DNA from: Candidatus Omnitrophota bacterium
Lineage (GTDB): Bacteria > Omnitrophota > Gorgyraeia > Gygaellales > Profunditerraquicolaceae
Direction of reading: 5' to 3'
Length of the DNA: 64,000 nt
Assembly (NCBI GenBank): GCA_028712255.1
Contig: JAQTQJ010000007.1
Span: 10,425 to 74,424, forward strand
Below, piece by piece: positions 2,555 through 55,882 of the stretch. The notes under the pieces were generated by a model that saw nothing but the letters and a program-made list of their open reading frames with translations, searched no databases and had not been told where the DNA came from. Position 1 is the first letter of the stretch; every line of letters starts with the position of its first letter. The position numbers were made by a program, and so were the translations under genes.

Positions 2555-2619
2555 GTAAAAATTAGTGTCATTGCGAGGGAGCAAAGCGACCGAAGCAATC
2601 TCTAATCAACTTTTAATCT

Positions 2620-3675
2620 ATGAATAGACAAATAAATTTAGCGCAAGCAGTTCTTGAAGCAACAGCCCAATGTATGCAGGATGATGGCTCAGTTTATATT
2701 ATGGGCCTGGGTGTTACCGACCCTAAAGGGGTTTTTGGAACTACTCTTGGGCTTGAAAAAAAATTCGGCGCAAAAAGAGTTTTGGATATGCCGGTAGCTG
2801 AAAACGGAATGACTGGTATTGCTATTGGCTCTGCTTTAGTTGGAATGCGCCCTATCTTGACTCACCAACGTATTGATTTTATGCTTTTATCCCTGGATCA
2901 GATAATCAATAATGCCGCAAAATGGCACTATATGTTTGGTGGAAAAATGAAGATACCGATAGTGATCCGTTTGTTAGTGGGCCGCGGGTGGGGGCAAGGG
3001 CCGCAGCATTCGCAAAGCCTGCAGGCGCTTTTTGCGCATATTCCGGGTTTAAAAGTAGTTATGCCGGCAACTCCCTATGATGCTAAAGGTTTATTGGTTT
3101 CTGCCGTTGAGGATAATAATCCGGTTATTTTTATTGAACATCGCTGGCTGCATAATACTTTGGGTAATGTCCCTTTAGAAAAATACAGGATTCCTTTAGG
3201 CAAGGCAAAAGTTGTAAAGGAGGGCAAGGATCTGACGATTATTTCTTCATCCTATACGACATTAGAAGCAATAAAGGTAGCTGAACTGTTTAAAAATGAA
3301 GGTATAAATATTGAAGTTGTAGATCTAAGGACAATTAAACCGCTGGACGAACTTACGATTATAAAATCGGTGAAGAAAACCAGAAGGTTAATTGTAATTG
3401 ATAGTGCCTGGAGGAGCTTTTCTGTTGCCTCAGAGATATTGGCACAGGTTGCAGAAAAAGCGTATCAGTCTCTCAAGTGTGCGCCAGTACGCATTACCTT
3501 TCCGGATGCTCCGACTCCGACCGGCTGGGCATTGTCTAATCATTATTATCCTCAGATTGAGGATATAATAAATACTGTTAAAAAAATGTTAAAAATTAAT
3601 AAACCACAACGATCAGAGAAAGTTTTAGATAAACCCTTGGACGTTCCTGATGCGACTTTTAAGGGGCCTTTTTAA
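2620..3675 (+). CDS. ThDP-dependent dehydrogenase E1 component beta subunit-like (transketolase pyrimidine-binding and C-terminal domains)
   Basis: 'GIAIGSALVGMRPI' and overall E1-beta/transketolase-C architecture. It lies directly downstream of the E1 alpha-like gene. Confidence 0.8.
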   Translation: MNRQINLAQAVLEATAQCMQDDGSVYIMGLGVTDPKGVFGTTLGLEKKFGAKRVLDMPVAENGMTGIAIGSALVGMRPILTHQRIDFMLLSLDQIINNAAKWHYMFGGKMKIPIVIRLLVGRGWGQGPQHSQSLQALFAHIPGLKVVMPATPYDAKGLLVSAVEDNNPVIFIEHRWLHNTLGNVPLEKYRIPLGKAKVVKEGKDLTIISSSYTTLEAIKVAELFKNEGINIEVVDLRTIKPLDELTIIKSVKKTRRLIVIDSAWRSFSVASEILAQVAEKAYQSLKCAPVRITFPDAPTPTGWALSNHYYPQIEDIINTVKKMLKINKPQRSEKVLDKPLDVPDATFKGPF

Positions 3676-3678
3676 ATT

Positions 3679-5169
3679 ATGTTAATTAAGCCTAAACAAA
3701 TAAAGAAGATACTTTTAACTCAGCCTAATTATGCCTGGCTTTCTAAGAGGACCTGGCAATTTCCTCCCTATACTTTGTGCTTGTTGAAAGCGATTATTAA
3801 AGATCAGACTAAGGTGGTAGTATTTGATCCAAATTTTAAGAATTTGTCTGAACAGGAAGCAAGGGCTTTTCTACAAAAAACCAAGCCCGATTTGGTCGGA
3901 GTAAGCTCGATTTCAACGGAATATTTTAATGTTACCCGGCATACGATAGCCCTTATTCGTAAGTGCCTACCGAAAGCTGTAATTGTTTTAGGTGGTGTAA
4001 TTCCTACGGTTATGATTCAAGAAGCGATGAAAGATAAAAATATTGATTATTGGATTATGGGAGAAGGAGAGCAATCATTTCCGTCTTTGATTGAGAAAAT
4101 ACGCTCAGACTCTAAAGATCTTACCGGTATTAGCGGCCTGGCGTATTGGCAGGGAAATAAGCCAGTCATCAATAAAGTGGAATTTATTACTGATCTTGAC
4201 GCAATTCCTTTTCCTGATTATTCGGCTGTCGTTGGCGCCTCCCTGCAGGATTATGGCAATATCAAATTTAAATATGCTCCGGGGCTCCTGGCGCGTAATT
4301 ACCCTGCGGCAGTTACGATTACTTCCAGAGGCTGTCCTTACAGGTGCATATTTTGCGCAGGAAGGACTGTAAGCGGCCAGAAAGTGCGCTTTAGAAGCGC
4401 GGAAAATGTGCTTAAAGAAGTTGATAGTTTATATAAACAGGGAATTCGGGAAGTTATTTTCTTAGACGACCATTTTTTAGCCAATCGAGGCCGGGCAATG
4501 AAAATAATGAATGGTATCTTAAATAACTATAAAGGCTTTAGCTGGAAGTGCGTTAATGTCACTGCCTGGCTGTTGGATGAAGAAATCTTAAATCTCATGT
4601 ATAAAAGCGGCTGCACGCATATAACTGTTTCTATTGAATCCGGGAATCAGGATGTGCTTACGAATATTGTCAAAAAACCGATCAGGCTGGATATTATTCC
4701 GGAAAAACTAACCTTGGCTAGGTCAATTGGTTTTGATGTAATTGCAAATTTTGTTATCGGTTTTCCGGGGGAAACCTGGGAGCAGATTCGGGATACATTT
4801 AAATATGCCCAGAAGCTTAATGTCGATATGGTAAATTTTCATATTGCTACTCCATTACCGAAAACCGAATTAATGGATGTTTGTTTAGAGAATAAATTAT
4901 TACCCGATGACTATGTAAAAAATATTTCTAAATATTCCGGTTACGGGAAAGGGTTAATTACAACTAAAGAATTTACTCCTTTTGAACTGGAAGTTTTGAG
5001 GTCTTTTGAATGGGACAGGATAAATTTCTCATCTCCTGAAAGAAGGGAAAAAATTGCCAGGATGCATGGGATAACTATGGAAGAATTAGGAGATTGGCGG
5101 ATAAATACAAGGCGTAACCTTGGCGTAAACAGCAAGGTTAAGAACATAATGTCGGCTGCAAAAAGATAG
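3679..5169 (+). CDS. B12-binding domain radical SAM enzyme
   Basis: N-terminal cobalamin-binding-like Rossmann region ('VGVSSIST', 'VLGGVIPT'). Radical SAM CxxxCxxC motif 'SRGCPYRCIFC'. Confidence 0.85.
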   Translation: MLIKPKQIKKILLTQPNYAWLSKRTWQFPPYTLCLLKAIIKDQTKVVVFDPNFKNLSEQEARAFLQKTKPDLVGVSSISTEYFNVTRHTIALIRKCLPKAVIVLGGVIPTVMIQEAMKDKNIDYWIMGEGEQSFPSLIEKIRSDSKDLTGISGLAYWQGNKPVINKVEFITDLDAIPFPDYSAVVGASLQDYGNIKFKYAPGLLARNYPAAVTITSRGCPYRCIFCAGRTVSGQKVRFRSAENVLKEVDSLYKQGIREVIFLDDHFLANRGRAMKIMNGILNNYKGFSWKCVNVTAWLLDEEILNLMYKSGCTHITVSIESGNQDVLTNIVKKPIRLDIIPEKLTLARSIGFDVIANFVIGFPGETWEQIRDTFKYAQKLNVDMVNFHIATPLPKTELMDVCLENKLLPDDYVKNISKYSGYGKGLITTKEFTPFELEVLRSFEWDRINFSSPERREKIARMHGITMEELGDWRINTRRNLGVNSKVKNIMSAAKR

Positions 5170-6013: not shown

Positions 6014-6715
6014 GTGAAAAGTAGTAAAGTTAATAAATCAGCTAAAAAACTCTATAAAGAAGGAACAGGATACCAGTTTGATACCCAGGAGCTAAGGTTG
6101 GGACCCTGGACATCATACAGTTTGATTAATGACCCAAAGCATATGTGTTTTGTACTCTCTAGATATAAATTCTGCGCGAAAATTTTAGAAGGTAAAAATA
6201 CTGTTATGGAGATAGGCTCAGGAGATGGTTTTGGCTTGCCGATTATAGCTCAGGCAGTAAAAAAGATATACGCAGTGGACTGGGATAAACGTTTACTCGA
6301 GGGTAATGCTGGACGTCTCAAACACTTAAAGAATGTAGAATATCTACATGTGGATTTTAATAAAGAATCTCCCAGCATTAAGGTGGATGGAATATACCTT
6401 ATTGATGTAATTGAGCATTTAGACAAAAAAACTGAAAAAGTATTTTTGGATAACATCGCAAAATGCCTTAAGCCCACGGGAGTTTTAATTATTGGTACGC
6501 CTAACGTAACTGCTTCTGAGTATGCTACTCCTAGAAGTAGCATACAACATATTAATTTAAAAAGTAATAAAACTTTGCGAGAACTAATGGAGAAGTATTT
6601 TGAGAATGTATTTATGTTTGGAATGAATGATGAGGTTTTACATACCGGTTATGCTCCGATGTGCCATTATCTCTGGGCAGTGGGAGCAGGTTTACGTTTA
6701 AAAACAGGAAAATAA
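6014..6715 (+). CDS. Class I SAM-dependent methyltransferase
   Basis: GTG start preceded by RBS 'aaaggagga'. Motif I 'VMEIGSGDGFG'. Confidence 0.7.
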   Translation: MKSSKVNKSAKKLYKEGTGYQFDTQELRLGPWTSYSLINDPKHMCFVLSRYKFCAKILEGKNTVMEIGSGDGFGLPIIAQAVKKIYAVDWDKRLLEGNAGRLKHLKNVEYLHVDFNKESPSIKVDGIYLIDVIEHLDKKTEKVFLDNIAKCLKPTGVLIIGTPNVTASEYATPRSSIQHINLKSNKTLRELMEKYFENVFMFGMNDEVLHTGYAPMCHYLWAVGAGLRLKTGK

Positions 6716-6717
6716 CG

Positions 6718-8499
6718 ATGAAGCTTTCGGATTATGTAGCCAAATTTTTGGTAGGACAAGGCATAAAACATGTATTTGTTATTACCGGCGGAGCATCTGC
6801 GCACCTGATTGATTCTATTGCTAAGACTCCTGGGATAAAATATATTTGTCCGCAGCATGAACAAGCAGGGGCAATGGCTGCCGATGCCTATGCTAGAGTT
6901 ACTGGAAAATTAGGAGTGGCAATAGCCACCAGCGGACCGGGTGCCACCAATATGCTTACCGGGGTCTGTTGTTCATTCTATGATTCGATTCCGACGCTCT
7001 ATATCACTGGACAGGTTTCAACCTTTCGTTCAAAAGGAAATGCCGGAATAAGGCAGTTGGGTTTTCAGGAAACAGATGTTACTGCAATATTTAGGCCTAT
7101 CACTAAATATGCCGTAAGAATCAGGGATCCTAAAGAGATCAGGTATGAATTTGAAAAAGCTGTTCATATTGCGCATTCAGGAAGGCCGGGGCCAGTATTA
7201 ATAGATATACCCGATAATTTACAAAGAATGGATGTCCAACCAAGATTATTAAAACCATTTATACCTGAAGATGGTAGAAATGATTCTCGTCGTTTGGATT
7301 CGCAGGTAATAAAGTGCATAGATTTACTTCGGCATGCAAAGAGGCCGGTTGTTATTCTTGGTTGGGGGATAAATCTTTCCGGCGCAGAAAAAGAAGTTTT
7401 AAAATTTGTGGAGAAGTCAGGATTACCGGTAGCGCCTACCTGGGGCCTAAGATATCTATTTCCGGCTAGCCATCCGCAATTAATCGGCGCATTCGGTACT
7501 CACGGCACACGTTACGGTAATTTTGCGGTACAAAATGCCGACTTTATTTTATCTATCGGGGCGCGCCTGGATACCCGTCAGGCAGGTTCACCTCACTGGA
7601 CATTTGCCAGAGGTGCTAAAAGGATAGTTGTTGATATCGATCCTTGCGAGCTGAAGAAATTTAAGAAATTAAAAATGAAAATAGATTTGGAAGTCAATGC
7701 GGATGCCAAGGATTTTCTAGAGCTGCTTAACCGTAAAATTACCGGTATAAAACTCCCCCAGATATCGGCTTGGCAGAAGAAAATTGCTCAATGGAAAGAA
7801 AAATTTCCTGTTTTCAGGAAGGAATATTTTAAAGAGAGCGGTGTAAATCCGTATGTTTTCATAAAAATGCTTTCCGACCAGGCTTTACCGGGAGATGTTA
7901 TTTTTGCTGATACTGGTTGTAGTCTAGCTTGGGTTTTGCAGTCTTTTGAATTCAAAAAAGGGCAGAAGCTTTTTAGCGCTTTTAACAACACGCCGATGGG
8001 ATATTCTTTACCGGCAAGTATCGGCGCCTCTTTTGCCATTAATAAAAAACCCGTGATCTGTGTAACCGGAGACGGTGGTTTACAGATGAATATTCAGGAG
8101 CTCATAACGGCTCTAAAGCATAAACTCCCAATAAAAATCTTTCTTTTTAATAATCACGGTTATGGCATGATTCGTCAAACTCAAGACCAGTGGTTTTGTT
8201 CGCGATATGAGGCCTCTACCATAGAAAGCGGGCTAGCTTTCCCGGATTTTATTAAGGTAGCCAAAGCCTACGGTTATAAAACAGTTAATATATTAAAAGC
8301 AAAAGATATGCATAAAGGTATTAGTGAAACTCTGCATTCAAAAGGCCCTGTTTTGTGTAATATCGAGATGCACTTAGGCCATAGCGTAATTCCACAGGTT
8401 AAATTCGGAAGGGCCCTGGAAGATGGGGAGCCTTTGTTGGAAAGAAAGCATTTTTTTGAATGTATGATTGTTAAGCCGCATAAAGCATCGCTTAAATAG
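6718..8499 (+). CDS. ThDP-dependent acetolactate-synthase-large-subunit-like enzyme (YerE-like candidate)
   Basis: N-terminal 'ITGGASAHLIDSI' pyrimidine domain and the ThDP GDG...N motif 'VTGDGGLQMNIQEL'. ATG 6718 is chosen over the upstream in-frame extension from 6661, which would overlap the previous gene. Confidence 0.8.
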   Translation: MKLSDYVAKFLVGQGIKHVFVITGGASAHLIDSIAKTPGIKYICPQHEQAGAMAADAYARVTGKLGVAIATSGPGATNMLTGVCCSFYDSIPTLYITGQVSTFRSKGNAGIRQLGFQETDVTAIFRPITKYAVRIRDPKEIRYEFEKAVHIAHSGRPGPVLIDIPDNLQRMDVQPRLLKPFIPEDGRNDSRRLDSQVIKCIDLLRHAKRPVVILGWGINLSGAEKEVLKFVEKSGLPVAPTWGLRYLFPASHPQLIGAFGTHGTRYGNFAVQNADFILSIGARLDTRQAGSPHWTFARGAKRIVVDIDPCELKKFKKLKMKIDLEVNADAKDFLELLNRKITGIKLPQISAWQKKIAQWKEKFPVFRKEYFKESGVNPYVFIKMLSDQALPGDVIFADTGCSLAWVLQSFEFKKGQKLFSAFNNTPMGYSLPASIGASFAINKKPVICVTGDGGLQMNIQELITALKHKLPIKIFLFNNHGYGMIRQTQDQWFCSRYEASTIESGLAFPDFIKVAKAYGYKTVNILKAKDMHKGISETLHSKGPVLCNIEMHLGHSVIPQVKFGRALEDGEPLLERKHFFECMIVKPHKASLK

Positions 8500-10522: not shown

Positions 10523-11578
10523 ATGATGAAAATATTGGCAGCAGTATTATCGGAAATCAATAAACCATTGATAATTGAAGAACTTTTGCTTCCGGATTTA
10601 TTAGCCGGGCAGGTGCTGGTAAAAATTGCCTATAGTGGGATTTGTCATACTCAGCTAAATGAGATGCGCGGGTTAAAAGGTAAGGATAAGTTTCTTCCGC
10701 ATACCTTAGGGCATGAAGGCTCTGGAGTAGTTGAGGCTATTGGCGCTGGAGTAAAAAAAATCAAGATAGGAGATAGGGTAGTATTAACTTGGATTAAAGG
10801 TAACGGTTCTGATATTCCATCTGCTTCATATAAAAGAAATGATAACACAATTGTTAATTCCGGGGCAATTTCTACCTTTATGACAAAAGCAGTTATTTCT
10901 GAAAATCGCCTGGTTAAAATTCCGGATGCAATGCTACTTCGTGAGGCTGCGCTTTTGGGATGCGCTATTCCTACGGGTGCAGGTATCGTGATGAATACAA
11001 TGGATATTTCTGAAAATAAAAGTATTGCGATTTTTGGCATGGGAGGCATCGGTTTAAGCGCATTGCTGGCTGCTAAAGCCCGTGGGGCATCGAAAATTAT
11101 CGCTATAGATATATCCGAAGATAGGCTTAAGCAATCAACTATACTTGGAGCCACACATGCATTAAACGCTAAGAAGGATAACATTATTGAAGCAATCATG
11201 AAGATTACGGATAGCAAGGGTGTTGATTATGCGATTGAATCTGCCGGCAAAAAGGAATCTATGGAGATAGCTTTTAAATCAGTCCGGGATAATGGCGGGT
11301 TGTGCGTTATAGCGGGTAACCTTTCTTTTGGCGAAAAGATTCAAATTAACCCTTTTGATTTGATTAAGGGTAAACGCATAATCGGTACCTGGGGAGGCCA
11401 AACTCAACCGGATAGAGATATACCCATGTATGCGGATTGGGTTATCTCTGGAAAATTTAATTTGAGAGAATTAGTCTGCCGTATTTTTGCGCTAAAAGAT
11501 ATCAACGAAGCTGTTGAATATATGGAACAGAGTGCGGTAGGGCGCGTTTTGATTGATATGGGGCTAACGCAAGGATAA
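10523..11578 (+). CDS. Zinc-dependent alcohol dehydrogenase family (MDR) oxidoreductase
   Basis: 'GICHTQLNEMRG', 'GHEGSGVVEAIGAGV' and Rossmann 'IFGMGGIGLSALLAA'. Confidence 0.8.
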   Translation: MMKILAAVLSEINKPLIIEELLLPDLLAGQVLVKIAYSGICHTQLNEMRGLKGKDKFLPHTLGHEGSGVVEAIGAGVKKIKIGDRVVLTWIKGNGSDIPSASYKRNDNTIVNSGAISTFMTKAVISENRLVKIPDAMLLREAALLGCAIPTGAGIVMNTMDISENKSIAIFGMGGIGLSALLAAKARGASKIIAIDISEDRLKQSTILGATHALNAKKDNIIEAIMKITDSKGVDYAIESAGKKESMEIAFKSVRDNGGLCVIAGNLSFGEKIQINPFDLIKGKRIIGTWGGQTQPDRDIPMYADWVISGKFNLRELVCRIFALKDINEAVEYMEQSAVGRVLIDMGLTQG

Positions 11579-14167
11579 ATGCAAGCTATATTACATAAAT
11601 CACGTAAATTACTGCGTAAGATCGAAGTTGACAGGGCGGTGTTATTCGGGGTGTTATCTAAATTCTGGAGTGTTTTCGCCGGGCCCGTAACTGCTTTACT
11701 GATAGTTGTAAAATTTACTCCTGAATATCAGGGGTATTACTATACTTTTGCTAGTCTTTTGGCTTTGCAGGTTTTTGTGGAATTAGGGTTAGGTACCGTT
11801 ATTATACAGTTTGCCAGTCATGAATGGTCTAAATTAGGGATCGATGAAGGTGGCAATATTACCGGAGATAAAGATGCGTTATCGCGGCTGAGAAGTTTGG
11901 CTAGTATTACTTCTAAATGGTATATGGTGGGTGCAGCGATTATCGCTTTGGGGTTAAGTGTAGCTGGCTATATGTTTTTTATAAAGTCACACAACGCCGG
12001 TGTAAACTGGGTATTCCCATGGTTCTCCTTGTGTTTTCTTACTGCGGTCACGATATGTTTTATTCCGGTTTGGGCTTTGCTTGAAGGCTGTAATCAGGTG
12101 TCTAATGTATATACTTACCGTTTTTTTCAAGGGATTATTACCAGTTTATCTGTTTGGGTAGCAATTTTCATTGGCGCTAAGCTTTGGGCAGCATCTATTT
12201 CGGTTGTATCGGTATTGTTGTGCTCGGTAATATTTTTAGGATTTAGATACCGCAATTTTATTAAAAGTCTTTTTTTGCGTAATATTTCGGGTGTTCGCAT
12301 AGATTGGCGTAAAGAAATTTTTCCTATGCAGTGGAGAATAGCGCTTAGTTGGATCACTGGATATTTTGTTTTTTCGCTATTCACTCCTGTTCTTTTTCGT
12401 TATCACGGCCCAATTATTGCGGGTCAATTTGGCATGACCTGGACTATTATTGGGGGAATAGGAGCAATTGCCGGTTCATGGTTATCACCTAAGATACCGC
12501 AGTTTGGCATGTTGATTGCGCGTAAAGAATACCAAAAGCTTGATCAGCTTTTTTGGCGTATTACGAAAATATTTATTTTTATTATTTTGGCCCTTTCAGT
12601 ATTCGTCTGGATAGCTATTTATGTTCTTTACCAGACAGCCAATCCTTTTTCTCAGCGCATTCTTCCACCGCTTCCTGCAGGATTATTCCTTATTGCCCAG
12701 ATTATTTCAATATTATCTTTCCCTTTTTCATTTTATCTGAGGGCACATAAGAAAGAACCACTTTTGTATTTTTCTGTTCTCTTGGGGGTAGTCACTGGCT
12801 TGTCTACTTTTATACTTGGTAAGAATTTTGGTATTAATGGGATGGCTTTTGGTTATTTAATTATTAATATTATTTTTATACCTTTTGTGGTTCTAATCTG
12901 GCATAACTGTCGCCGTTTTTGGCACGCTAATATTGATTCCGATAAGAAAATATTTTTTTGGATAGGGTACATTCATAGCAAAATACAAAACAAAGCATTA
13001 TTTTGCTATATTAAAGAGAATGTCCGCAGGTTATATTTAATAATTATTTCTAATCTGTGCGGTATTATTGCCTATCCGTTTTGTTTATTAATGCGGATCA
13101 GATTTCTGGTTTTATTGGAGGGTGCTATTGGACATCTCTGTGTTGAACTGGATTGCTATATTAAAGAAGGAATATTAGGATTACACCGAAGAGAGAAGGC
13201 TATTTTATTGGCCTCTTCCGCTAAAATATGTAATATGCATTTTTTGGGTTATTGGAAGCGGTATTTTACAATCATTAGTTCTCCATGGCTTTGCGCGATA
13301 TTAGAACCGTTAGCGAGAAATAGATTTACCGGTTATTCATCTTATCGGTTTGCTGTTTCTTTTGAAGCCGCATATTTTCCTGAAATTCAAAAAAGATTTG
13401 CCGGTAGGCCTGCGTTACTTTCTTTGAAACAGGATGATATTGTACGTGGTTGGGAGGTTTTATACAAGATGGGATTGAAAAAAGGAGATTGGTTTGTTTG
13501 TTTTCATTGCCGGGAGGATGGTTCTTTCGGAAAGCCTGATTGTTCTCCTCGCAATGCCAATATCGAAAATTATTTTTCTGCAATAGAATCAGTAGTTAGC
13601 CGCGGCGGTTGGGTAATCCGCATGGGAGATGAGGCTATGAAGTCTCTGCCGCCCATGAGGCAGGTAATTGACTATGCTCATTCAGAATTTAAAAGTGACT
13701 GGATGGATGTTTTTCTTTGTGGTAGTACTAAGTTTTTTCACGGTAGCCATTCTGGATTAAGTGCTTTGCCTTCGATATTTGGCGTTCCTGTGGCGATAAC
13801 CAACTATGCGCATATGTCCGGTGTTTTACCTTATGGAGTTGAAGATATATGTATGCCTAAGCTGACTTGGTCGGATAAGCAGAACCGTTATCTTCATTTT
13901 AAAGAAGTCTCACTTATCCCGCTTAGGAAGATCTGGCAGGACTATGAATCATTGGAATTGCGTTTGGTCGATAATGATCCGGAGGATATTAAAAATCTGA
14001 CTGATGAGATGTTCGCTAGAATCGAAGGGAAAATGGTATATACCGAAGAAGACAATATCCTACAGCAGCGTTTTAAATCACTCATGAATCCTAGCCATTT
14101 TTCCTATGGGAGTGTTTCACGTATTGGCAGGGATTTTTTACGTAAATACTCATATTTAGTTTTATGA
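11579..14167 (+). CDS. Fusion protein: N-terminal Wzx/PST-family polysaccharide flippase-like multi-TM domain plus C-terminal ~400-aa GT-B-like domain of unknown function
   Basis: The N-terminal ~440 aa is hydrophobic with multiple predicted TM helices and a flippase-like start. The C-terminal half is paralogous to the downstream ORF ('GHLCVE.DCYIKEG', 'GGWVIRMGD', identical C-terminal 'QQRFKSLMNPSHFSYGSVSRIGRDF'). Confidence 0.6.
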   Translation: MQAILHKSRKLLRKIEVDRAVLFGVLSKFWSVFAGPVTALLIVVKFTPEYQGYYYTFASLLALQVFVELGLGTVIIQFASHEWSKLGIDEGGNITGDKDALSRLRSLASITSKWYMVGAAIIALGLSVAGYMFFIKSHNAGVNWVFPWFSLCFLTAVTICFIPVWALLEGCNQVSNVYTYRFFQGIITSLSVWVAIFIGAKLWAASISVVSVLLCSVIFLGFRYRNFIKSLFLRNISGVRIDWRKEIFPMQWRIALSWITGYFVFSLFTPVLFRYHGPIIAGQFGMTWTIIGGIGAIAGSWLSPKIPQFGMLIARKEYQKLDQLFWRITKIFIFIILALSVFVWIAIYVLYQTANPFSQRILPPLPAGLFLIAQIISILSFPFSFYLRAHKKEPLLYFSVLLGVVTGLSTFILGKNFGINGMAFGYLIINIIFIPFVVLIWHNCRRFWHANIDSDKKIFFWIGYIHSKIQNKALFCYIKENVRRLYLIIISNLCGIIAYPFCLLMRIRFLVLLEGAIGHLCVELDCYIKEGILGLHRREKAILLASSAKICNMHFLGYWKRYFTIISSPWLCAILEPLARNRFTGYSSYRFAVSFEAAYFPEIQKRFAGRPALLSLKQDDIVRGWEVLYKMGLKKGDWFVCFHCREDGSFGKPDCSPRNANIENYFSAIESVVSRGGWVIRMGDEAMKSLPPMRQVIDYAHSEFKSDWMDVFLCGSTKFFHGSHSGLSALPSIFGVPVAITNYAHMSGVLPYGVEDICMPKLTWSDKQNRYLHFKEVSLIPLRKIWQDYESLELRLVDNDPEDIKNLTDEMFARIEGKMVYTEEDNILQQRFKSLMNPSHFSYGSVSRIGRDFLRKYSYLVL

Positions 14168-15429
14168 AAAATAATAAATTTAATTTTCAAATTGAACTTC
14201 AATACAAATATGAGATTTTGGCTGCTCTTTTGCATAGGATTAAAGAGAAGGGGATTTTTTTCTGCATAAGAAGAGGTTTTAAAAAATTACTATATGATGT
14301 AATTTTTTGTCAGATTGCAGGATTTATTGCTTGGCCATTTTGTAGTTTATTCAATGTAAAATTCATTAGCCCTCTTGAATGCGGTATTGGCCATCTTTGT
14401 GTCGAGCCGGATTGCTATATTAAAGAAGGGATGTTGTGCCTTCGGCCACAATTTAAAATTATTATGTTGGTTCCTAAAAATAAAATTTATAACCGGCATC
14501 TTTTAACTTACTGGGAAAAATATATAAAAATTATTACTTCACCTTTGTTTTGCTTGTTATTTGATCCACTGCAAAAAAATAAATTTACTTTAGCTCAAAC
14601 TCATCGTTTTGTTTTTTCACCCAATAGCGCCTACTTTCCCCAGATTCAAAAAAAGTTTTCAGATAGGCCGGCGCTTTTGATTTTACGAGATGAAGACCTT
14701 AAGCGTGGTTGGGCCGTTTTATATGATTTGGGGATGAAAAAAGATGATTGGTTTGTCTGTGTTCACTGCAGAGAAGATGGATGTTCAGGAAGAATCGAAC
14801 CTACGCGTAATGCCGATATCCATAATTATTTTCCTGCCATGGATGATATTGTTCAGCGTGGCGGCTGGGTGATTCGTATGGGGGATAAATCCATGAAGCA
14901 AATTCCATCTATGAAAGGTGTTATTGATTACCCTCACCTGGGGATTAAAAGTGAATGGATGGATGTTTTTCTTTGCGCAGCTTCTAAGTTTTTTCTCGGT
15001 AGTCATTCAGGATTGTGCCATGTAGCTAATATATTCGGTGTGCCTGTGGCTATAGCAAATTCCGCACATATGGCAGGCGTACTTCCTTATGGAGCCAAAG
15101 ATATAGCTATACCGAAATTGACCTGGTCAGATAAAGAAAACAGGTATCTTCATTTTAAAGAGGTCTTTGATTCTGCTTTAAGCCATTCTTGCCTTAGTCA
15201 GCTATATGAATCTTCACAGTTACGCCTGGTTGAGAATTCACCCGAAGATATAAAGAAACTGGCGGAAGAGATGTTTGATAGAATTGAAGGTAAACTTAAT
15301 TATGCTCAGGTAGATGAAGAACTTCAGCAGCGTTTTAAATCACTGATGAATCCCAGTCATTTTTCCTATGGGAGTGTTTCACGTATTGGCAGAGATTTTT
15401 TACATAAATACTCAAATTTAATTTTATGA
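14164..15429 (+). CDS. Stand-alone paralog of the C-terminal domain of the upstream fusion protein (putative GT-B-like transferase, function unknown)
   Basis: High amino-acid and nucleotide similarity to 12960-14167. Nucleotide identity is near-complete over the last ~100 nt. Confidence 0.6.
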   Translation: MKNNKFNFQIELQYKYEILAALLHRIKEKGIFFCIRRGFKKLLYDVIFCQIAGFIAWPFCSLFNVKFISPLECGIGHLCVEPDCYIKEGMLCLRPQFKIIMLVPKNKIYNRHLLTYWEKYIKIITSPLFCLLFDPLQKNKFTLAQTHRFVFSPNSAYFPQIQKKFSDRPALLILRDEDLKRGWAVLYDLGMKKDDWFVCVHCREDGCSGRIEPTRNADIHNYFPAMDDIVQRGGWVIRMGDKSMKQIPSMKGVIDYPHLGIKSEWMDVFLCAASKFFLGSHSGLCHVANIFGVPVAIANSAHMAGVLPYGAKDIAIPKLTWSDKENRYLHFKEVFDSALSHSCLSQLYESSQLRLVENSPEDIKKLAEEMFDRIEGKLNYAQVDEELQQRFKSLMNPSHFSYGSVSRIGRDFLHKYSNLIL

Positions 15430-16346
15430 AGAAGATTTTAGTTACCGGGGCAACCGGTTTTATTGGTAGGCATTGTTTACCTTTGTTAATAGAAAAAGGT
15501 TATCAGGTACATGCCGTATCATTTTCCAAAAATGATTTTAGTTGCCCGGGTGTACGTTGGTGTCAGGTTAACCTGTTAAATTCTAAAGACACTGATAGCC
15601 TGGTCTCTTCAGTTAGAGCCACGCATCTTTTACATTTAGCTTGGTATACCGAACATAAGAAATATTGGACTGCTTTAGAGAATCATGATTGGGTGCGGGC
15701 TAGTTTTGATTTGGTAAAATCCTTTCGTACTCAAGGCGGGCAAAGAGCCGTAATCGCAGGAACCTGCGCCGAATATGATTGGAGTCAAGGAAGGTGTTCT
15801 GAGGATACTACACCTTTGTTGCCTGCTACTTTATATGGTAATTGCAGAAATGAATTAAGAAAGAAAGTTGAGGTTCTCTCTAAAGAAACTGGCTTAAGCA
15901 GTGTTTGGGCAAGGATATTTTTTGCTTATGGGCCAGCTGAGCATCCTAATCGTTTAGTATCCTCAGTTATTGCTTCACTTCTTAAAGGTAAACAGATTCC
16001 TTGTTCAGAAGGCAACCAAAAGCGTGATTTTTTGTATGTCGAGGATGTTGCTTTGGCTTTTGTGGCTTTACTGGAAAGTAACTTTTGCGGCGCGATAAAT
16101 ATCGGTTCCGGGGTTCCGGTATCGATTAAAGAATTAATTAATATTATTTCGGCAAAATTAGGCCGGTCGGATTTAGTCCAATTTGGTAAAATAACCGCAA
16201 ATACGAACGAGCCGGAGCTTTTAGTTGCAGACGTGAAGAAGATTCAAGATATAATCGGCTGGTTTGCACGGTATGACCTTAACCATGGGCTGGATAAAAC
16301 TATTGCATGGTGGAAGGATTATTTAAAAAAGGAAAATAGTAATTAA
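15426..16346 (+). CDS. NAD-dependent epimerase/dehydratase
   Basis: 'ILVTGATGFIGRH' Rossmann motif. Confidence 0.75.
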   Translation: MKKILVTGATGFIGRHCLPLLIEKGYQVHAVSFSKNDFSCPGVRWCQVNLLNSKDTDSLVSSVRATHLLHLAWYTEHKKYWTALENHDWVRASFDLVKSFRTQGGQRAVIAGTCAEYDWSQGRCSEDTTPLLPATLYGNCRNELRKKVEVLSKETGLSSVWARIFFAYGPAEHPNRLVSSVIASLLKGKQIPCSEGNQKRDFLYVEDVALAFVALLESNFCGAINIGSGVPVSIKELINIISAKLGRSDLVQFGKITANTNEPELLVADVKKIQDIIGWFARYDLNHGLDKTIAWWKDYLKKENSN

Positions 16347-16347
16347 A

Positions 16348-17304
16348 ATGAAATTACCAGCTGAAGTTATAAATTTATTAAGTTGTCCGGTATGTAAAAG
16401 CAAGCTTAAATTGCAAGGGGATTTATTCAAATGTATCAATCTGGATTGTAATTTGGCATATCCTGTTGTAAATGATATTCCGGTATTGATTAATGAGAAA
16501 AACAGCCTTTTTTCAATCAATGATTTCGTGAATAGTAAATCAACTTATTTTCCTAAGAGCTATCATTCCCGGATTAGGAAAATTATTAAAGGAATAATTC
16601 CGGGCATTGGCGTAAACATTAAGGCGCGTCAAAATCTGGCTAAATTTAGCGAATTAGCATTAAAACAATCTAAATCTCCAAAAATACTGGTTATCGGCGC
16701 AAGTATTGTTGGGCCAGGAATGGATAGTTTGATTAAAAATGGATCGATGCAATTAATAGAAAGCGATATTTCGTTTGGCCCGAGAACAATGTTGATTTCT
16801 GATGCTCATGATATACCTTTCGATGATTGTTCGTTTGACGGAGTAATAATACAGGCAGTGCTTGAGCATGTAATAGACCCATATTTATGCGTGAGTGAGA
16901 TTTTTAGAGTTTTGAAAAATGATGGCCTTGTTTACGCAGAAACACCGTTTATGCAGCAAGTGCATGGTAAGCAGTTTGATTTTACCAGATTTACTTATTT
17001 AGGGCATAGGCGCTTGTTCAGGAGGTTTCAGGATATCTCAAGCGGAGCTGTTTCCGGACCGGGCATGGCACTTGCCTGGTCATGGCGATTTTTTCTTACA
17101 AGTTTTACAAAAAATGAAATTATTAAAAATATTTTATTAGTTTTTGCGCATCTTACTTCGTTTTATTTTAAATATTTTGATTATATTTTGATCAGAAAAA
17201 GAGCAGCATTAGATGCTGCTTCGGCTTATTATTTTATGGGCCGTAAAAGCGAGGAGATTCTTTCCGATAGAGAATTAATCGGTTTATATAACAGAAAAAA
17301 ATAA
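16348..17304 (+). CDS. Trm112-like zinc-ribbon fused to class I SAM-dependent methyltransferase
   Basis: N-terminal 'CPVCKSKLK...CINLDCNLAYPVVNDIPVLI' (Trm112/DUF343-like). Methyltransf_11-like 'VLEHVIDPYLCVSEIFRVLKNDGLVY'. Confidence 0.65.
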   Translation: MKLPAEVINLLSCPVCKSKLKLQGDLFKCINLDCNLAYPVVNDIPVLINEKNSLFSINDFVNSKSTYFPKSYHSRIRKIIKGIIPGIGVNIKARQNLAKFSELALKQSKSPKILVIGASIVGPGMDSLIKNGSMQLIESDISFGPRTMLISDAHDIPFDDCSFDGVIIQAVLEHVIDPYLCVSEIFRVLKNDGLVYAETPFMQQVHGKQFDFTRFTYLGHRRLFRRFQDISSGAVSGPGMALAWSWRFFLTSFTKNEIIKNILLVFAHLTSFYFKYFDYILIRKRAALDAASAYYFMGRKSEEILSDRELIGLYNRKK

Positions 17305-17306
17305 AT

Positions 17307-18197
17307 ATGAAAACACAGTGTCCGGTTTGCAAAATAAACTCAGGATCAGCATTTACAACTAAAGATTGGAATAGGAGGGTTTCTACCGAAGTCTTTAAAT
17401 ACCAGAAATGCATGAAATGCGGTTTAATTTTTTTAGCCAATCCGCCGGTTGATTTGGGAGTTTATTATGGGGAAAGTTATTACTGCCGGCCGCTATTTAA
17501 AAAAATAGAAAACGTCGCAAAAAAAACAAGCTTTCAGCTTGCGATGATTAAACGGTTTGTCAAAGATGGCCGTCTTTTAGAGGTGGGGCCAGGTTATGGT
17601 GTATTTGCGCTTCAGGCAAAAAAAGGCGGCTTTGAGGTGGATGTTATCGAAAGAGAAGGAAAATGCTGCGATTTTTTAGCAAAAATTATTGGTGTTAAGG
17701 TCATTAAAAGTGATAAGCCTCATGAGGTTATTGAATCGGCAAAAGAATATGATGTTATTGCGCTTTGGCAGGTTATCGAACATTTAACTGACCCTTGGGA
17801 ATTTTTGAAGAAGGCTGCAAAAAATTTAAAACCAAACGGAGTAATTTTAATCGCGGCTCCTAACCCTGCGGCTTTTCAGTTCAAGCTGCAGGGCGCGCAA
17901 TGGCCGCATGTGGATGCCCCGAGGCATTTATGGCTTATTCCGGTTGAGCTGCTAATCAATTATGTAGAACCTTTTGGCCTAGAGCCTGTGATGGTAACTT
18001 TTAATGATAAAGGGGCAAGAGCTTGGAACAGATTTGGTTGGCAGCGTTATTTAATGAATAAATCCTCTAATAAATTGTTTCAAACAGCTGCTTTTATTAT
18101 GGGGCATTTTATTTCATTAGCGGTGGGTGTTTTTGAAACCAAGAAGGATAATGGAAGTGCTTATACTATTATTTTAAAGAAAAGAGCGAGTGTATGA
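17307..18197 (+). CDS. Zinc-ribbon-containing class I SAM-dependent methyltransferase
   Basis: 'CPVCK...CMKCG' followed by motif I 'LLEVGPGYGVFAL' and 'VIEHLTDPWEFLKKAAKNLKPNGVIL'. Confidence 0.65.
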   Translation: MKTQCPVCKINSGSAFTTKDWNRRVSTEVFKYQKCMKCGLIFLANPPVDLGVYYGESYYCRPLFKKIENVAKKTSFQLAMIKRFVKDGRLLEVGPGYGVFALQAKKGGFEVDVIEREGKCCDFLAKIIGVKVIKSDKPHEVIESAKEYDVIALWQVIEHLTDPWEFLKKAAKNLKPNGVILIAAPNPAAFQFKLQGAQWPHVDAPRHLWLIPVELLINYVEPFGLEPVMVTFNDKGARAWNRFGWQRYLMNKSSNKLFQTAAFIMGHFISLAVGVFETKKDNGSAYTIILKKRASV

Positions 18198-19363
18198 AAT
18201 TTTCAGTATTACTGCCAACCCGTAACGGGGGAAAGTATTTAAGAAATTGTATAACTTCGATATTGCTTGAGCCATATCAGGATATGGAATTGGTTGTTTC
18301 GGATAATGCCAATACCGATGAAACCCAAGAAATATTAAAATCTTTTTCTAGCGACTCACGTTTAAAGGTGGTGAGGTTCTCTGAGCCTGTCTGTGTGACA
18401 GAGAATTGGAATAATGCTCTTTTAGCCAGTAAAGGCGATTATGTCCTGATGATGGGGGATGATGATGGCCTTTTGCCAGGGTATTTTAACCGTATGGAGG
18501 AAATTTTAAAAAGATACAATAATCCCGATTGCGTTACCTATAATGCTTATAGTTATATGGCGCCCTATTCAATCGGCCAAGACAGGCAAAGTTATTACAA
18601 AGATCCTTTTTATTCTTTTGGTAAGGAATTTGAGAAAGAAAAAATAATACAAAAAGAGGAACGTTTTCTTATTGTTAGAGATATGTTTCGTTTTCATAAT
18701 CGTCTTCCGCTTAATATGCAAACTACTTTGATGTCTAGAGTAGCTATGAATCAGATTAGGGGAGGCGCGTTTCAGCCGCCGTTTCCGGACCACTATGCGA
18801 TAAATTCGCTTTTATTGACAGCAATGTCCTGGGTCTTTGTGCCTGAAAAATTATTGGTTGTTGGCGTATCTTCTAAATCATTCGGTCATTTCGCATACAA
18901 TAATAAGCAGGAGGAAGGGAAAAAATACCTGGGAATTAATCCGGATTTTAAAGGCCAGCTTCCCGGTGCAGATATGAATAATTGTATGCATATCTGGCTG
19001 TCGCTTTTAAAAATAAATCATGCGGATTTATTAAAAAAAATAAAAATCAGCCGTTGTCAGTATATCCGGCATCAGGTTTATTCATGGTTTGCCCAGTATA
19101 AGTCAGGTATTTTACCTTTAAATGATTTAGGTAAGCGTTTTCTTATGCTTAATATGTTTGATTGGTGTTATTTATTATTTACAGTTTTTGATAAAAAAAG
19201 CTGGAAACATTTTTTGAATAGGTCTTCTAAGGGTGGTAAAGCTACACAAATTCAGAAAATATGGCCTGGGGCTATGTTTCTTGAGGGTGTTTCTAATATC
19301 AATGAATTTTCCAGTTGGATTAATAAACAGAATAATGAACAAAATATGCGAGGTATGAAATGA
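18194..19363 (+). CDS. Glycosyltransferase family 2
   Basis: 'FSVLLPTRNGGKYL', 'VVSDNANTD' and DxD-like 'MGDDDG'. Confidence 0.7.
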   Translation: MKFSVLLPTRNGGKYLRNCITSILLEPYQDMELVVSDNANTDETQEILKSFSSDSRLKVVRFSEPVCVTENWNNALLASKGDYVLMMGDDDGLLPGYFNRMEEILKRYNNPDCVTYNAYSYMAPYSIGQDRQSYYKDPFYSFGKEFEKEKIIQKEERFLIVRDMFRFHNRLPLNMQTTLMSRVAMNQIRGGAFQPPFPDHYAINSLLLTAMSWVFVPEKLLVVGVSSKSFGHFAYNNKQEEGKKYLGINPDFKGQLPGADMNNCMHIWLSLLKINHADLLKKIKISRCQYIRHQVYSWFAQYKSGILPLNDLGKRFLMLNMFDWCYLLFTVFDKKSWKHFLNRSSKGGKATQIQKIWPGAMFLEGVSNINEFSSWINKQNNEQNMRGMK

Positions 19364-21649: not shown

Positions 21650-22189
21650 ATGAAATTCTACGAACAAAAAATAAAAGGTGTTTGGATTATTGAGGCTGAG
21701 CCTTTTAAGGATAGCCGCGGGATGTTTTTTAGGCATTTCTGCCAGAAAGAATTTTTAAAAAACGGCTTAGAATCTAAGATCCTGCAGACTAATGTTTCCA
21801 AGAATAATCAAAAATATACTTTACGGGGCATGCATTATCAGCTCAAACCTTTTGGCGAGCACAAAACAATGTTATGCGTCTCTGGGGCCATTTATGACAT
21901 TATTGTTGATTTAAGGCCCGAATCGGAAACATTTTTAAAATGGATATCCGTTGAATTGAATTCTCAAGCTCCTTTGAGTTTGCATATTCCTGCCGGATGC
22001 GCTAATGGATATCTTACTTTAAAGGACGATACTACTATTCTTTATTATATGTCTGAATTTTATTCGCCAGATGCTTATCGTGGTTTCCGTTATAATGATA
22101 AGCTATTTGATTTTAAATGGCCTGCCGAACCGGCGATTATTTCGGACAAAGACCGTACTTATCCTGATTTTGATCCTAGGGGTTGCTGA
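21650..22189 (+). CDS. dTDP/GDP-sugar 3,5-epimerase (RmlC-like cupin)
   Basis: 'GVWIIEAEPFKDSRGMFF', 'LRGMHYQ' and 'YDIIVDLR' are RmlC-family hallmarks. ATG 21650 is chosen so as not to overlap the upstream gene. Confidence 0.8.
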   Translation: MKFYEQKIKGVWIIEAEPFKDSRGMFFRHFCQKEFLKNGLESKILQTNVSKNNQKYTLRGMHYQLKPFGEHKTMLCVSGAIYDIIVDLRPESETFLKWISVELNSQAPLSLHIPAGCANGYLTLKDDTTILYYMSEFYSPDAYRGFRYNDKLFDFKWPAEPAIISDKDRTYPDFDPRGC

Positions 22190-23409
22190 TGGATATCCCT
22201 AAACAAGCTGTAATTCTTTGCGGAGGATTGGGGGAGCGTTTGCGTCCTCTAACTGATTTAGTGCCTAAGCCAATGGTTCTGGTTAATGGCGCACCTTTTT
22301 TATGGTATCTTTTGGAGCAGCTTAAAGATAATGGTATTAAAGAAGTTATTTTGTTAACCGGGTATCGGGGAGAACAGATCTGTGAATATTTTAAAGACGG
22401 CAACCAGCTAGGGCTATCTATACGATATTCTCACGGGCCTGTAGAGTGGGAAACCGGGAGGCGCCTTTTTGAAGCCAAGGAGTTACTCGATGAACATTTT
22501 TTACTTTTATACAGCGATAATTTTTTACCTTTTAACTTAAAAAAAATCGTAAAGTTTTATAATGAACAGAAAAAGTTGTTGAGTTTTATTGTGCAACCTA
22601 AAGAGAAAGGCAATATCCGTATGGGTGAGGCAGGAGTTGTCCAGGTTTATGATAAAACTCGTTCTGCTGCAGGTTTGGGCTTTGTTGAATTAGGATATAT
22701 GATCGTAAACAAGAAAGTATTTGAATTTTATAGCGATAAAGATGTTAGTTTCTCTGATATAATCAACAAATTGGTTTCGGTGGGCCAAGTGGCTGGTTTT
22801 ACTGTTTTGGATACTTATTATAGTATTTCAGATGTACAACGCTTAAGGATGATGGAGAAATATCTCCAACCCAAGAAGATATTACTTATTGATAGAGATG
22901 GAGTGATCAATAAGAAGGCGCCAAGAGGTGAATATATTGGTTCTTGGGAAGATTTCTCTTTTATCCAAGAAAATATCGAAGGAATGAAAAAGCTGAGTCA
23001 GGCAGGTTTTTCATTTATCGTTATCTCCAATCAGGCCGGTATTGCTCGAGGTATGGTGACGGCTGAAGCTGTTGAATTTATTCATCAACGGATGAAAGAG
23101 GCATTGAATGGTGAAGGAATAAGTATTTTAGATATTTATCTTTGTCCGCACCATTGGGATGAAAAGTGTTTCTGTCGTAAACCTGAGCCGGGGCTTTTCT
23201 TTGAGGCTGCGCGTAAGTGGAGTTTCCGCTTGGATAAGGCATATTTTATAGGAGATGATCCCAGGGATTGTCAGGCGGCTTATCGAGCTGGTTGCGGATG
23301 TGTTTATACTGGCCAAAACGATGATTTAAAGGATTTAGGCTTTGAAGAAAAACCTGAATTTGTAGTTAAGAATTTAAACGAAGCAGTACCTTTTTTGGAG
23401 AAAATATGA
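22183..23409 (+). CDS. Bifunctional sugar-1-phosphate nucleotidyltransferase (HddC-like) / D,D-heptose 1,7-bisphosphate phosphatase (GmhB-like)
   Basis: N-terminal 'AVILCGGLGERLRPLT..PKPMV' NTP-transferase motif. C-terminal HAD 'LLIDRDGVINK', 'ISNQAGIARG' and GmhB Zn-site 'CPHHWDEKCFCRKPEPG'. Confidence 0.75.
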   Translation: MLMDIPKQAVILCGGLGERLRPLTDLVPKPMVLVNGAPFLWYLLEQLKDNGIKEVILLTGYRGEQICEYFKDGNQLGLSIRYSHGPVEWETGRRLFEAKELLDEHFLLLYSDNFLPFNLKKIVKFYNEQKKLLSFIVQPKEKGNIRMGEAGVVQVYDKTRSAAGLGFVELGYMIVNKKVFEFYSDKDVSFSDIINKLVSVGQVAGFTVLDTYYSISDVQRLRMMEKYLQPKKILLIDRDGVINKKAPRGEYIGSWEDFSFIQENIEGMKKLSQAGFSFIVISNQAGIARGMVTAEAVEFIHQRMKEALNGEGISILDIYLCPHHWDEKCFCRKPEPGLFFEAARKWSFRLDKAYFIGDDPRDCQAAYRAGCGCVYTGQNDDLKDLGFEEKPEFVVKNLNEAVPFLEKI

Positions 23410-26423: not shown

Positions 26424-26439
26424 ACTAGAAAAGGTGAAA

Positions 26440-41531: not shown

Positions 41532-41552
41532 TATTAAATAGGAGGGATAGTT

Positions 41553-42497: not shown

Positions 42498-42506
42498 GAG
42501 GACAAA

Positions 42507-44852: not shown

Positions 44853-44855
44853 CAG

Positions 44856-50000: not shown

Positions 50001-50018
50001 ATTTTGTAGGAGTCTGAA

Positions 50019-55875: not shown

Positions 55876-55882
55876 TTCTGAT

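Follow-up and report, generated by a model that had tools for sequence, protein, structure and literature searches.

A recurrent fusion of a Wzx-like membrane domain to a predicted TIGR04372 glycosyltransferase module, and a homogenised 3′ tail shared with its tandem paralog, in an Omnitrophota surface-glycan locus

Two long-standing questions in glycan assembly are how a Wzx-type flippase recognises its complete substrate and whether such flippases associate physically with cytoplasmic glycosyltransferases (GTs). They form the background to one gene in the 64,000-nt stretch of DNA analysed here (the window), a surface-glycan locus of 64 kb with its genes on a single strand, from a metagenome-assembled genome (MAG) of Omnitrophota. 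Gene A joins a membrane domain to a soluble domain, gene B repeats the soluble domain, and the 3′ ends of the two genes are nearly identical. Is the fusion real, how did the two tails come to be so alike, and what might the cassette do? The genes and domains concerned are:

10523..11578, + strand: upstream flank, Zn-dependent alcohol-dehydrogenase-family gene (Pfam ADH_N/ADH_zinc_N)
11579..14167, + strand: fusion gene A, MOP/Wzx-fold membrane domain plus predicted TIGR04372 glycosyltransferase module (862 aa)
11579..12943, + strand: gene A membrane domain (aa 1-455, ~12 TM helices, MOP fold)
12944..14164, + strand: GT module of gene A (aa 456-862, two family-specific N-terminal helices plus GT-B core)
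14164..15429, + strand: gene B, predicted stand-alone TIGR04372 glycosyltransferase, paralog of the gene A GT module (421 aa)
15426..16346, + strand: downstream flank, NAD-dependent epimerase/dehydratase, directly 3′ of gene B

The first-pass annotation had read ORF 11579-14167 as a Wzx-like multi-TM domain fused to a soluble domain of ~400 aa, and the two modules found agree with that reading. The predicted model of the membrane domain has the MOP fold (two 6-TM bundles, for which 12-14 TM helices are the criterion), and its matches in a predicted-structure search were MATE, WzxE, and MurJ. Topology analysis gave ~12 TM segments with both termini predicted to be cytoplasmic, and K/R-rich stretches at the N-terminus, in the TM2-3 and TM6-7 loops, and in the linker. 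The domain ends in a conserved IW-x-CR-x-x-WH motif. The structure models are of high confidence, and that of gene A (pTM 0.68) has a low-confidence linker and leaves the domain interface undefined. A Pfam scan of both proteins returned zero families at E ≤ 0.1 (including Polysacc_synt, Polysacc_synt_3, MatE, and Glyco_transf_9), only 1 of the 34 members of gene A's MOP subfamily touched Polysacc_synt, gene A scored 46 bits against the curated Wzx model NF041503 (cutoff 300), and hhalign to the window's own canonical Wzx (48456-50000) gave a probability of 0.5%. PDB sequence and profile searches with the GT and MOP modules returned nothing usable. Because similarity to the curated Wzx, MATE, and Polysacc_synt models is weak, it is from the fold alone that we infer flippase activity for this putative Wzx-like domain. 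It differs from Wzx O-unit flippases and other members of the MOP superfamily (WzxE, MurJ, TacF, MATE) in the missing Polysacc_synt and MatE matches, in its covalent fusion to a glycosyltransferase (relatives being fused to GT2 or another domain), and in unusually conserved polar motifs; the subfamily has a mean column identity of 48% and many invariant polar residues.

The soluble domain is supported as a predicted TIGR04372 glycosyltransferase module that is duplicated as gene B, and the duplication at 14164-15429 had been recognised in the first pass. The NCBIfam model covers 207 positions with a cutoff of 45 bits, which both proteins far exceed (gene A: 196.9 bits, aa 637-836, 13487-14086, model positions 1-207; gene B: 216.5 bits, aa 195-395), and NCBI names both exact proteins TIGR04372 family glycosyltransferase; the family itself is defined by sequence only. 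Gene A aa 468-862 align to gene B aa 25-421 (59% aa and 66% nt identity), and ATGA stop/start overlaps join gene A to gene B and gene B to the next gene. The predicted fold of the module is GT-B and closest to GT9 heptosyltransferases (WaaC/WaaF among the top fold matches). Sequence identity to these enzymes (WaaC, WaaF, Veillonella GT9 3tov) and to TibC-type proteins is about 9-14%, the likeness of fold coming from the model, and unlike them the TIGR04372 module has no Pfam Glyco_transf_9 match and is longer by a pair of helices at its N-terminus (~60 aa) and a conserved tail at its C-terminus (~35 aa). Its predicted catalytic residues lie in a GHLC-x-E-x-DCY-x-KEG motif. A full-text literature search on the family name returned zero papers, and the searched literature contained no description for TIGR04372 of a MOP partnership, of fusions, of a GT9-like fold, or of conversion between tandem copies; the present analysis assigns the family a predicted fold (GT9-like) for the first time and links it to a partner.

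The fusion is a real, recurrent, and conserved architecture in its family; it is neither peculiar to this genome nor an artefact. Independent assemblies (JGI, ENA, NCBI, and Logan) contain at least 13 full-length homologs with the same fusion and intact reading frames, at loci labelled Omnitrophota, Planctomycetales, and Sideroxydans. Where genome representatives carry a close relative of the GT, a member of this MOP subfamily is either fused to it or encoded immediately upstream (e.g., L010-L015, L017, L019, L020, L025); other fusions join the subfamily to GT2 or to a different recurring domain. Variants of the syntenic cassette (M, MOP; G, GT; hyphen, fused; slash, separate) are M/G, M-G, M/G/G, X-M/G/G, and M-G/G. 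The N-terminal domain of the X-MOP fusions was considered as a divergent TIGR04372 module and showed zero similarity; a 417-aa unannotated gene in L001 (10515-11768), considered as a displaced paralog, was unrelated. The fusion had initially been called unusual, which holds for the literature, where full-text and broader searches for flippase-glycosyltransferase fusions found no described example, but not for genomes, where it recurs. Literature searches on Omnitrophota glycans likewise found no relevant description.

The flanks of the cassette recur as well. The alcohol-dehydrogenase gene keeps its position in L001, L004, L007, and the contig with P0006 (83% aa identity to L007), and the epimerase/dehydratase gene stands immediately 3′ of the final TIGR04372 gene in the seven syntenic cassettes examined, the Sideroxydans locus (L002/L003) being the exception. 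The epimerase shares 87% aa identity with that of L008, although for the MOP and the GT the two loci share only about 50%, and high similarity between L008 and the window begins only at the epimerase gene. We rejected the tail as the crossover of a cassette swap with L008, whose GT is uniformly divergent, the tail included (68-71% nt identity). A different mosaic of the same two GT copies is present in a related genome. The cassette changes by fusion and fission, duplication, and recombination.

The near-identity of the two 3′ ends lies in the following segments:

14063..14168, + strand: conversion tract, copy in gene A (last 35 codons plus stop/start overlap)
15325..15430, + strand: conversion tract, copy in gene B (93% identical to the gene A copy)

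The two copies, in which exact repeats reach about 35 nt, differ at 7 of 106 nt, whereas the bodies outside the tail share only 64% nt and 56% aa identity, so that divergence along the pair is not uniform. The near-identical block that the first-pass annotation placed at 14060-14167 and 15330-15429 is there, although its second copy begins a few bases earlier, at 15325; the description of the paralogs as moderately diverged over most of their length was sound, as was that of their encoded C-termini as identical, both proteins ending in the same peptide (27 aa, LQQRFKSLMNPSHFSYGSVSRIGRDFL). Synonymous differences between the genes are few in the tail and saturated in the body (Nei-Gojobori pS = 0.23 vs. 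0.71; dS about 0.27 vs. about 2.2), and pS is still 0.70-0.83 in those body windows where the protein is best conserved (74-83% aa identity). Where the two proteins share a residue, they also share its codon in 26/31 cases in the tail and in 97/190 cases in the body (P = 4e-4 by Fisher's test and 0.02 by scan permutation), and four-fold sites match at 9/12 and 19/63, respectively.

At the protein level, the C-terminal tail is the best-conserved motif of the TIGR04372 family (65-85% aa identity in all compared pairs), and this family-wide motif explains part of the amino acid identity between the C-termini of gene A and gene B. Synonymous identity in the tail, however, is unique to this pair: the identical-codon fraction is 0.84, against 0.32-0.62 in the tails of 10 cross-genome pairs. 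Of two further tandem pairs, L004 has a tail fraction of 0.40 vs. 0.55 and L005 shows a moderate rise (0.65 vs. 0.43). The tail was an outlier in none of the other tandem pairs scanned with a 35-codon window (L004, L005, L058, L072, L079), and on these grounds we rejected both a nucleotide constraint shared across the family and a hot spot for conversion in the tail. An independent 1.26-kb JGI metagenome contig (L088) reproduces the tandem junction, with a GT tail, ATGA, and an ortholog of gene B. When gene A (A), gene B (B), and the positional ortholog in L088 (X) were compared, informative sites in the body favoured BX (BX 121, AX 57, AB 42) and those in the tail favoured AB (AB 16, BX 5, AX 3). 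The switch is sharp, falling between 14058 and 14065 (Fisher P = 1e-5), and the L088 tail is equidistant from the two copies (80%).

These data support homogenisation of the last ~105 nt of gene A and gene B by gene conversion over a short tract, set in a history that is mosaic, because dS collapses in the tail of the intragenomic pair alone, the site pattern switches relative to L088, and no RNA structure accounts for the likeness. A large conversion from gene B to the position of gene A would also belong to this history. Recent recombination or gene conversion had been proposed from the start; conversion is borne out by pS and by the L088 comparison, but the tract, with a dS of about 0.27, is not very recent. 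The two GT copies are old, their synonymous sites being saturated, and the homogenised tail has its 5′ breakpoint at about 14060. The converted segment encodes the family's most conserved motif, whose conservation probably aids heteroduplex formation and retention of the tract.

Three other accounts of the pair were weighed. In a metagenome assembled from short reads, a misjoin or strain chimera at the repeated tail could create either the tandem or the fusion; the contig does come from a MAG, the exact proteins are found on one contig only, and the tract holds the exact repeats mentioned above. Such an error is nevertheless very improbable, given the fused architecture in the other proteins from independent assemblies, the same junction in L088, M/G/G tandems in L004 and L005, and the 7 mismatches, which mean that the copies were not collapsed. 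Selection might instead have kept the tails alike, acting on the C-terminal peptide or on the nucleotide sequence (ATGA translational coupling or RNA structure), and it would account for protein conservation of the tail in every compared pair and for the ATGA overlap with the next gene at the end of each tail. It is improbable and already largely refuted, however: synonymous identity is raised neither in the tails of the cross-genome pairs nor in L004, the rise in L005 is only moderate and neither tail is an outlier in the scan, body windows of similar protein conservation have higher pS than the tail (0.70-0.83 vs. 0.23), and coupling signals would span about 15-20 nt rather than 105. RNA structure was rejected as a cause because the two copies fold differently and no better than shuffles (z = -0.8 and +0.3). 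Finally, gene B could be a young duplicate of the gene A GT module whose body diverged fast by positive selection, leaving the tail as the undiverged remainder. The gene A GT module does sit on a long branch (50-54% identical to orthologous fusion GT modules, which are 62-82% identical among themselves), while its MOP domain is still 60-69% identical to those of orthologous fusions; identities of 49-59% were too uniform for a neighbour-joining tree and per-domain comparison to assign the module as an ortholog of those in other fusions. This account is scarcely credible, being already contradicted by dS: positive selection on the protein does not yield saturated synonymous sites in the body, L088 contains an ortholog of gene B itself, and a closest relative of gene B (P0122) occupies the same pre-epimerase position in L005.

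The evolutionary process behind the architecture is ordinary, and the conversion signal is nothing unusual. As in concerted evolution or conversion between tandem paralogs of surface-glycan loci, a low-dS tract lies within saturated paralogs, the pair is mosaic relative to a positional ortholog, and highly variable wzx/GT modules stand between more conserved flanks; the tract here differs in coinciding with the most conserved motif of the family. The signal illustrates the evolution of the most variable module of a surface-glycan locus, in which genes duplicate and fuse, modules are replaced, and short tracts are converted.

Taken as a whole, the locus is best explained, with a probability of roughly 0.7, as a variable flippase-plus-transferase cassette in which late sugar transfer would be coupled to flipping and the tails underwent conversion. 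Because both MOP termini are predicted to be cytoplasmic, the fused GT would lie at the inner membrane face. There, it and gene B may extend an undecaprenyl-PP-linked oligosaccharide by one or two late sugars, after which the product would be flipped by the MOP domain; fusion or tight adjacency would couple the last glycosyl transfers to export. Alternatively, the MOP-like domain might anchor the TIGR04372 transferases to the membrane or offer them a platform that binds the acceptor, flipping being left to the canonical Wzx or another exporter. The strong conservation and invariant polar residues of the subfamily, its bare similarity to Wzx, MATE, and Polysacc_synt models, and the canonical Wzx and a Wzy_C-like protein within the same window all fit this alternative, which we consider unlikely. 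Equally tentative is an extension of the coupled cassette to an obligate "glycosylate-and-flip" machine, in which the N-terminal helical hairpin and C-terminal tail of each transferase would dock on conserved cytoplasmic loops of the MOP protein such as HEWS-x-L...GD-x-x-ALSRL, only the product of docked transferases would be translocated, and tail conversion would keep both transferases compatible with a single MOP partner; if it were true, the fusions found in nature would already provide a construct for structural capture of a Wzx-GT complex.

A MOP-fold protein repeatedly fused to a GT-B transferase, GT2, or another domain, or else adjoining a GT-B gene, constitutes Rosetta-stone evidence for flippase-GT association, and MOP-GT fusions give structural and biochemical studies naturally occurring single-chain constructs. 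The MprF-type synthase-flippase fusion, a lipid-modifying enzyme joined to the translocator of its own product (bioRxiv 10.1101/2022.03.11.483950), follows the same logic of a cytoplasmic-face transferase joined to a membrane domain that moves the modified lipid. The likeness is one of analogy only, the folds and substrates being unrelated (aminoacyl-phospholipids vs. polyprenol-linked glycans).

The candidate link between the TIGR04372 module and a heptose donor, to which the GT9 heptosyltransferases among the top fold matches also point, is weak. The HddA-, HddC-, and HldE-like matches all fall below equivalog cutoffs. They comprise an HddA-like kinase and an HddC-GmhB-like fusion at 22183-24398 in the window, and HldE-like genes <5 kb from the GT in L002/L003/L025 (one Sideroxydans locus) and in 15 further loci. 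Enzymes of other sugar pathways in the loci include those for CDP-hexose, TPP-dependent enzymes, and C-methyl sugar enzymes.

Both genes proposed in the first-pass annotation appear in the ORF list:

11579-14167, + strand: gene A, 862 aa, a MOP/Wzx-fold membrane domain fused to a TIGR04372 glycosyltransferase (GT) module
14164-15429, + strand: gene B, 421 aa, a stand-alone TIGR04372 paralog

A and B meet in an ATGA stop/start overlap, as do B and the gene after it. The soluble domain of A is duplicated in B as had been claimed (A residues 468-862 vs. B 25-421: 59% amino-acid and 66% nucleotide identity), and the repeat finder also picked up the paralogous blocks. Divergence is not uniform along the copies: in an alignment anchored on the stop codons, identity is ~58-68% upstream of 14062 and then rises abruptly, with 7 mismatches in 106 nt between 14063-14168 (A) and 15325-15430 (B). 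The near-identity noted for the last ~100 nt is thus borne out, and both C-termini carry the same peptide, LQQRFKSLMNPSHFSYGSVSRIGRDFL.

Protein conservation accounts for part of this signal. The last ~35 residues (the tail) are the best-conserved part in every family pair compared, within or between genomes (65-85% amino-acid identity vs. 46-70% in the body, the bulk of the GT alignment), with the family consensus LQxRFKxLMxPxHxSYGxxSRxGRDFLRKY. Synonymous sites were also more similar in the tail: among residues identical in A and B, codons were identical at 26/31 tail vs. 97/190 body positions (Fisher P = 4e-4; scan permutation P = 0.02), and four-fold sites matched at 9/12 vs. 19/63. By the Nei-Gojobori method, pS was 0.23 (dS 0.27) in the tail vs. 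0.71 (dS about 2.2, saturated) in the body, and was still 0.70-0.83 in the most conserved 35-codon body windows (74-83% amino-acid identity). Tail codon identity in ten cross-genome comparisons was 0.32-0.62, on par with their bodies and with no tail excess, and the tail was no outlier in the other tandem pairs checked (L004, L005, L058, L072, and L079). The synonymous tail signal is therefore specific to the A/B pair. RNA structure was rejected as its cause, since folding of both copies was unremarkable (z = -0.8 and +0.3) and the structures differ.

Ranked by identity, the database protein nearest to B is P0125 (71% over its 322 residues). It sits on a 1,263-nt JGI contig, L088, where the same ATGA overlap leads into an ORF 81% (amino acid) and 84% (nucleotide) identical to the B N-terminus. 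The tandem GT arrangement is present in an independent assembly and, because the ORF across the ATGA matches B, P0125 is the positional ortholog of the GT module of A. We made a three-way codon alignment of A, B, and P0125 (X) and counted informative sites per region.

Informative sites by region (A residues)
5' part, 543-612: BX 27, AX 36, AB 38
Body, 613-826: BX 121, AX 57, AB 42
Tail, 827-862: BX 5, AX 3, AB 16

The pattern differs between tail and body (P = 1e-5), with the switch between 14058 and 14065, and also between 5' part and body (P = 5e-4). By these counts P0125 is a mosaic: its body is B-like (77-81% nucleotide identity, near the 84% between true B orthologs), its 5' end is more A-like, and its tail is equidistant from A and B, which are 92% identical there. 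Such a mosaic matches what repeated gene conversion between two tandem copies would predict. The L088 lineage would have acquired a long conversion tract, or alternatively the body of A would have been replaced in the window lineage; in addition, the window lineage would have acquired a short 3' tract. The low tail pS and the switch relative to P0125 both support the recombination or gene conversion first proposed, and we regard the mosaic history of the two GT modules as established. For tandem paralogs in a glycan locus, gene conversion is nothing out of the ordinary.

NCBI names the exact A and B proteins 'TIGR04372 family glycosyltransferase' (Candidatus Omnitrophica MAG contig, 81.5 kb), and the NCBIfam TIGR04372 domain is found in both (197 and 217 bits, cutoff 45). 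The N-terminal half of A weakly matches NCBIfam WZX_like (46 bits vs. cutoff 300), and Pfam has no match in A or B. Hydropathy indicates about 12 TM segments in A, with K/R-rich stretches at the N-terminus, TM2-3 loop, TM6-7 loop, and linker; this fits an N-in/C-in topology of the MOP domain, which would place the GT module of A in the cytoplasm. Two long helices specific to the family open the GT module; the second (A 487-505, B 42-60) is hydrophobic and may associate with the membrane. The cytoplasmic TM2-TM3 loop (aa 77-105 of A, within 11579-12943) contains a predicted beta-hairpin and a nearly invariant motif, QFASHEWS-x-L...G-x-I-x-GD-x-x-ALSRL; such conservation is unusual for a flippase, and the transferase may dock at this loop.

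Fusion of the two domains is genuine and recurrent. We found 13 other full-length fused proteins (42-60% identity) in JGI, ENA, NCBI, and Logan assemblies, with loci in Omnitrophota (L001/L010, L007, and L012), a Planctomycetales-labelled MAG (L011), and a Sideroxydans MAG (L002/L003/L025). The fusion had been called unusual, which holds in that no description of it, or of the MOP/TIGR04372 partnership, was found in the searchable literature, although the architecture recurs; both fall within Wzx-dependent glycan assembly, a familiar type of system. Gene A joins its two parts simply end to end: after the conserved MOP C-terminal motif IW-x-CR-x-x-WH come a ~20-residue linker and then residues aligning to the N-terminal helices found in stand-alone GTs. 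More commonly, MOP proteins of this subfamily are encoded on their own (about 480 aa), directly upstream of a TIGR04372 gene in L005, L008, L013, L015, L017, L019, and L020; the subfamily also occurs with a GT2 fused at its C-terminus, or with an unannotated ~370-aa domain at its N-terminus (P0019, P0026, P0027, P0029, and P0031). This ~370-aa domain, which has no Pfam or NCBIfam match and no similarity to TIGR04372, is also found repeatedly as its own gene, close to TIGR04372 genes, in other phyla (sites: L004 8001-9120, N-terminal in P0029; L014; L072 2250-3810; L057 1-849; L046/L048; L002/L003 1205-3016). Cyanobacterial GT modules carry N-terminal extensions of ~350-540 aa in place of the MOP partner. 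In Microcoleus sp. ARI1-B5 (L058 1658-6080), two tandem ~700-aa proteins with a C-terminal TIGR04372 module share a mid-domain block of codon identity 0.78-0.83 vs. about 0.55 elsewhere, a possible further conversion tract.

Five forms of the syntenic cassette flanked by the ADH-family gene and the epimerase were seen.

Cassette forms
MOP and GT as separate genes: L008
MOP-GT fusion: L001, L007, contig carrying P0006
MOP and two GTs, all separate: L005
~370-aa domain fused to MOP, then two separate GTs: L004
MOP-GT fusion, then a separate GT: window

The window ADH (10523-11578) is 83% identical to its L007 counterpart (L007 794-1840), and the window epimerase, MT318, and GT2 are 87-89% identical in amino acids to L008 (window 15426-18922 vs. 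L008 8653-13437), whereas the MOP and GT modules of L007/L008 are only 50-69% identical to those of the window. These figures make the flippase-transferase segment the hypervariable, exchangeable core of a mosaic locus in which the whole MOP/GT module was replaced; wzx and GT genes usually form such a core.

The pair comprises two predicted GT-B modules of one family, one covalently joined to a MOP-fold membrane domain, and MOP/GT adjacency or fusion is conserved across lineages. The transferases would act on a polyprenol-linked glycan at the cytoplasmic face, the MOP domain would flip their product, and the fusion would couple glycosyl transfer and flipping. In the main functional rival, the MOP-like domain serves as an anchor or a platform for the acceptor, and flipping falls to the canonical Wzx (48456-50000) that adjoins the nonulosonic-acid genes of the window. 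The GT9-like fold suggests heptose as donor sugar, as do heptose-activation-like genes, all below equivalog cutoffs, in the window, in the Sideroxydans locus (L002/L003/L025), and in 15 more of the loci retrieved; further unusual sugar pathways are encoded alongside. An HldE-like bifunctional protein with its domains in reversed order (N-terminal nucleotidyltransferase and C-terminal PfkB kinase) is encoded within 5 kb of a TIGR04372 gene in one Sideroxydans locus (L003 3034-4509) and 15 others from diverse taxa (L040, L045, L046, L048, L051, L055, L061-L063, L073-L075, L080, L083, and L087), with an adjacent NTP-transferase in most and all scores below RfaE equivalog cutoffs.

The whole 64-kb window is a single co-directional glycan-biosynthesis cluster. 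It includes SDR epimerases and dehydratases, many SAM methyltransferases, two C-methyltransferase-type genes, an HddA-like kinase, an HddC-GmhB-like fusion, a Wzy_C-like protein, and the following:

3679-5169, 36708-38156, 39045-40472, 51795-53300, 60359-61813, 61881-63380: six B12-binding radical-SAM paralogs (22-40% identical mutually)
34859-35926, 43791-44852: two SPASM-type radical-SAM enzymes
1580-3675, 6661-8499, 26416-28307: two E1-dehydrogenase/transketolase-like gene pairs and a three-domain TPP enzyme
40563-51785 and 57662-58402: second glycan module, with DegT aminotransferase, PIG-L deacetylase, WbqC, NeuB, a PseG-like gene, and two CMP-transferases (nonulosonic-acid pathway)
50019-51785: LIC12162-family transferase (394 bits), beside the nonulosonic-acid genes

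The unusually dense radical-SAM set suggests multiple sugar C-methylations or rearrangements, and the TPP-dependent enzymes among the sugar genes may form branched-chain sugars. An HMGL-like/MptE-like fusion protein (54118-55875) also lies inside the sugar cluster, and the start of an LdpA-like Fe-S protein (55775-56896) overlaps the ORF before it.
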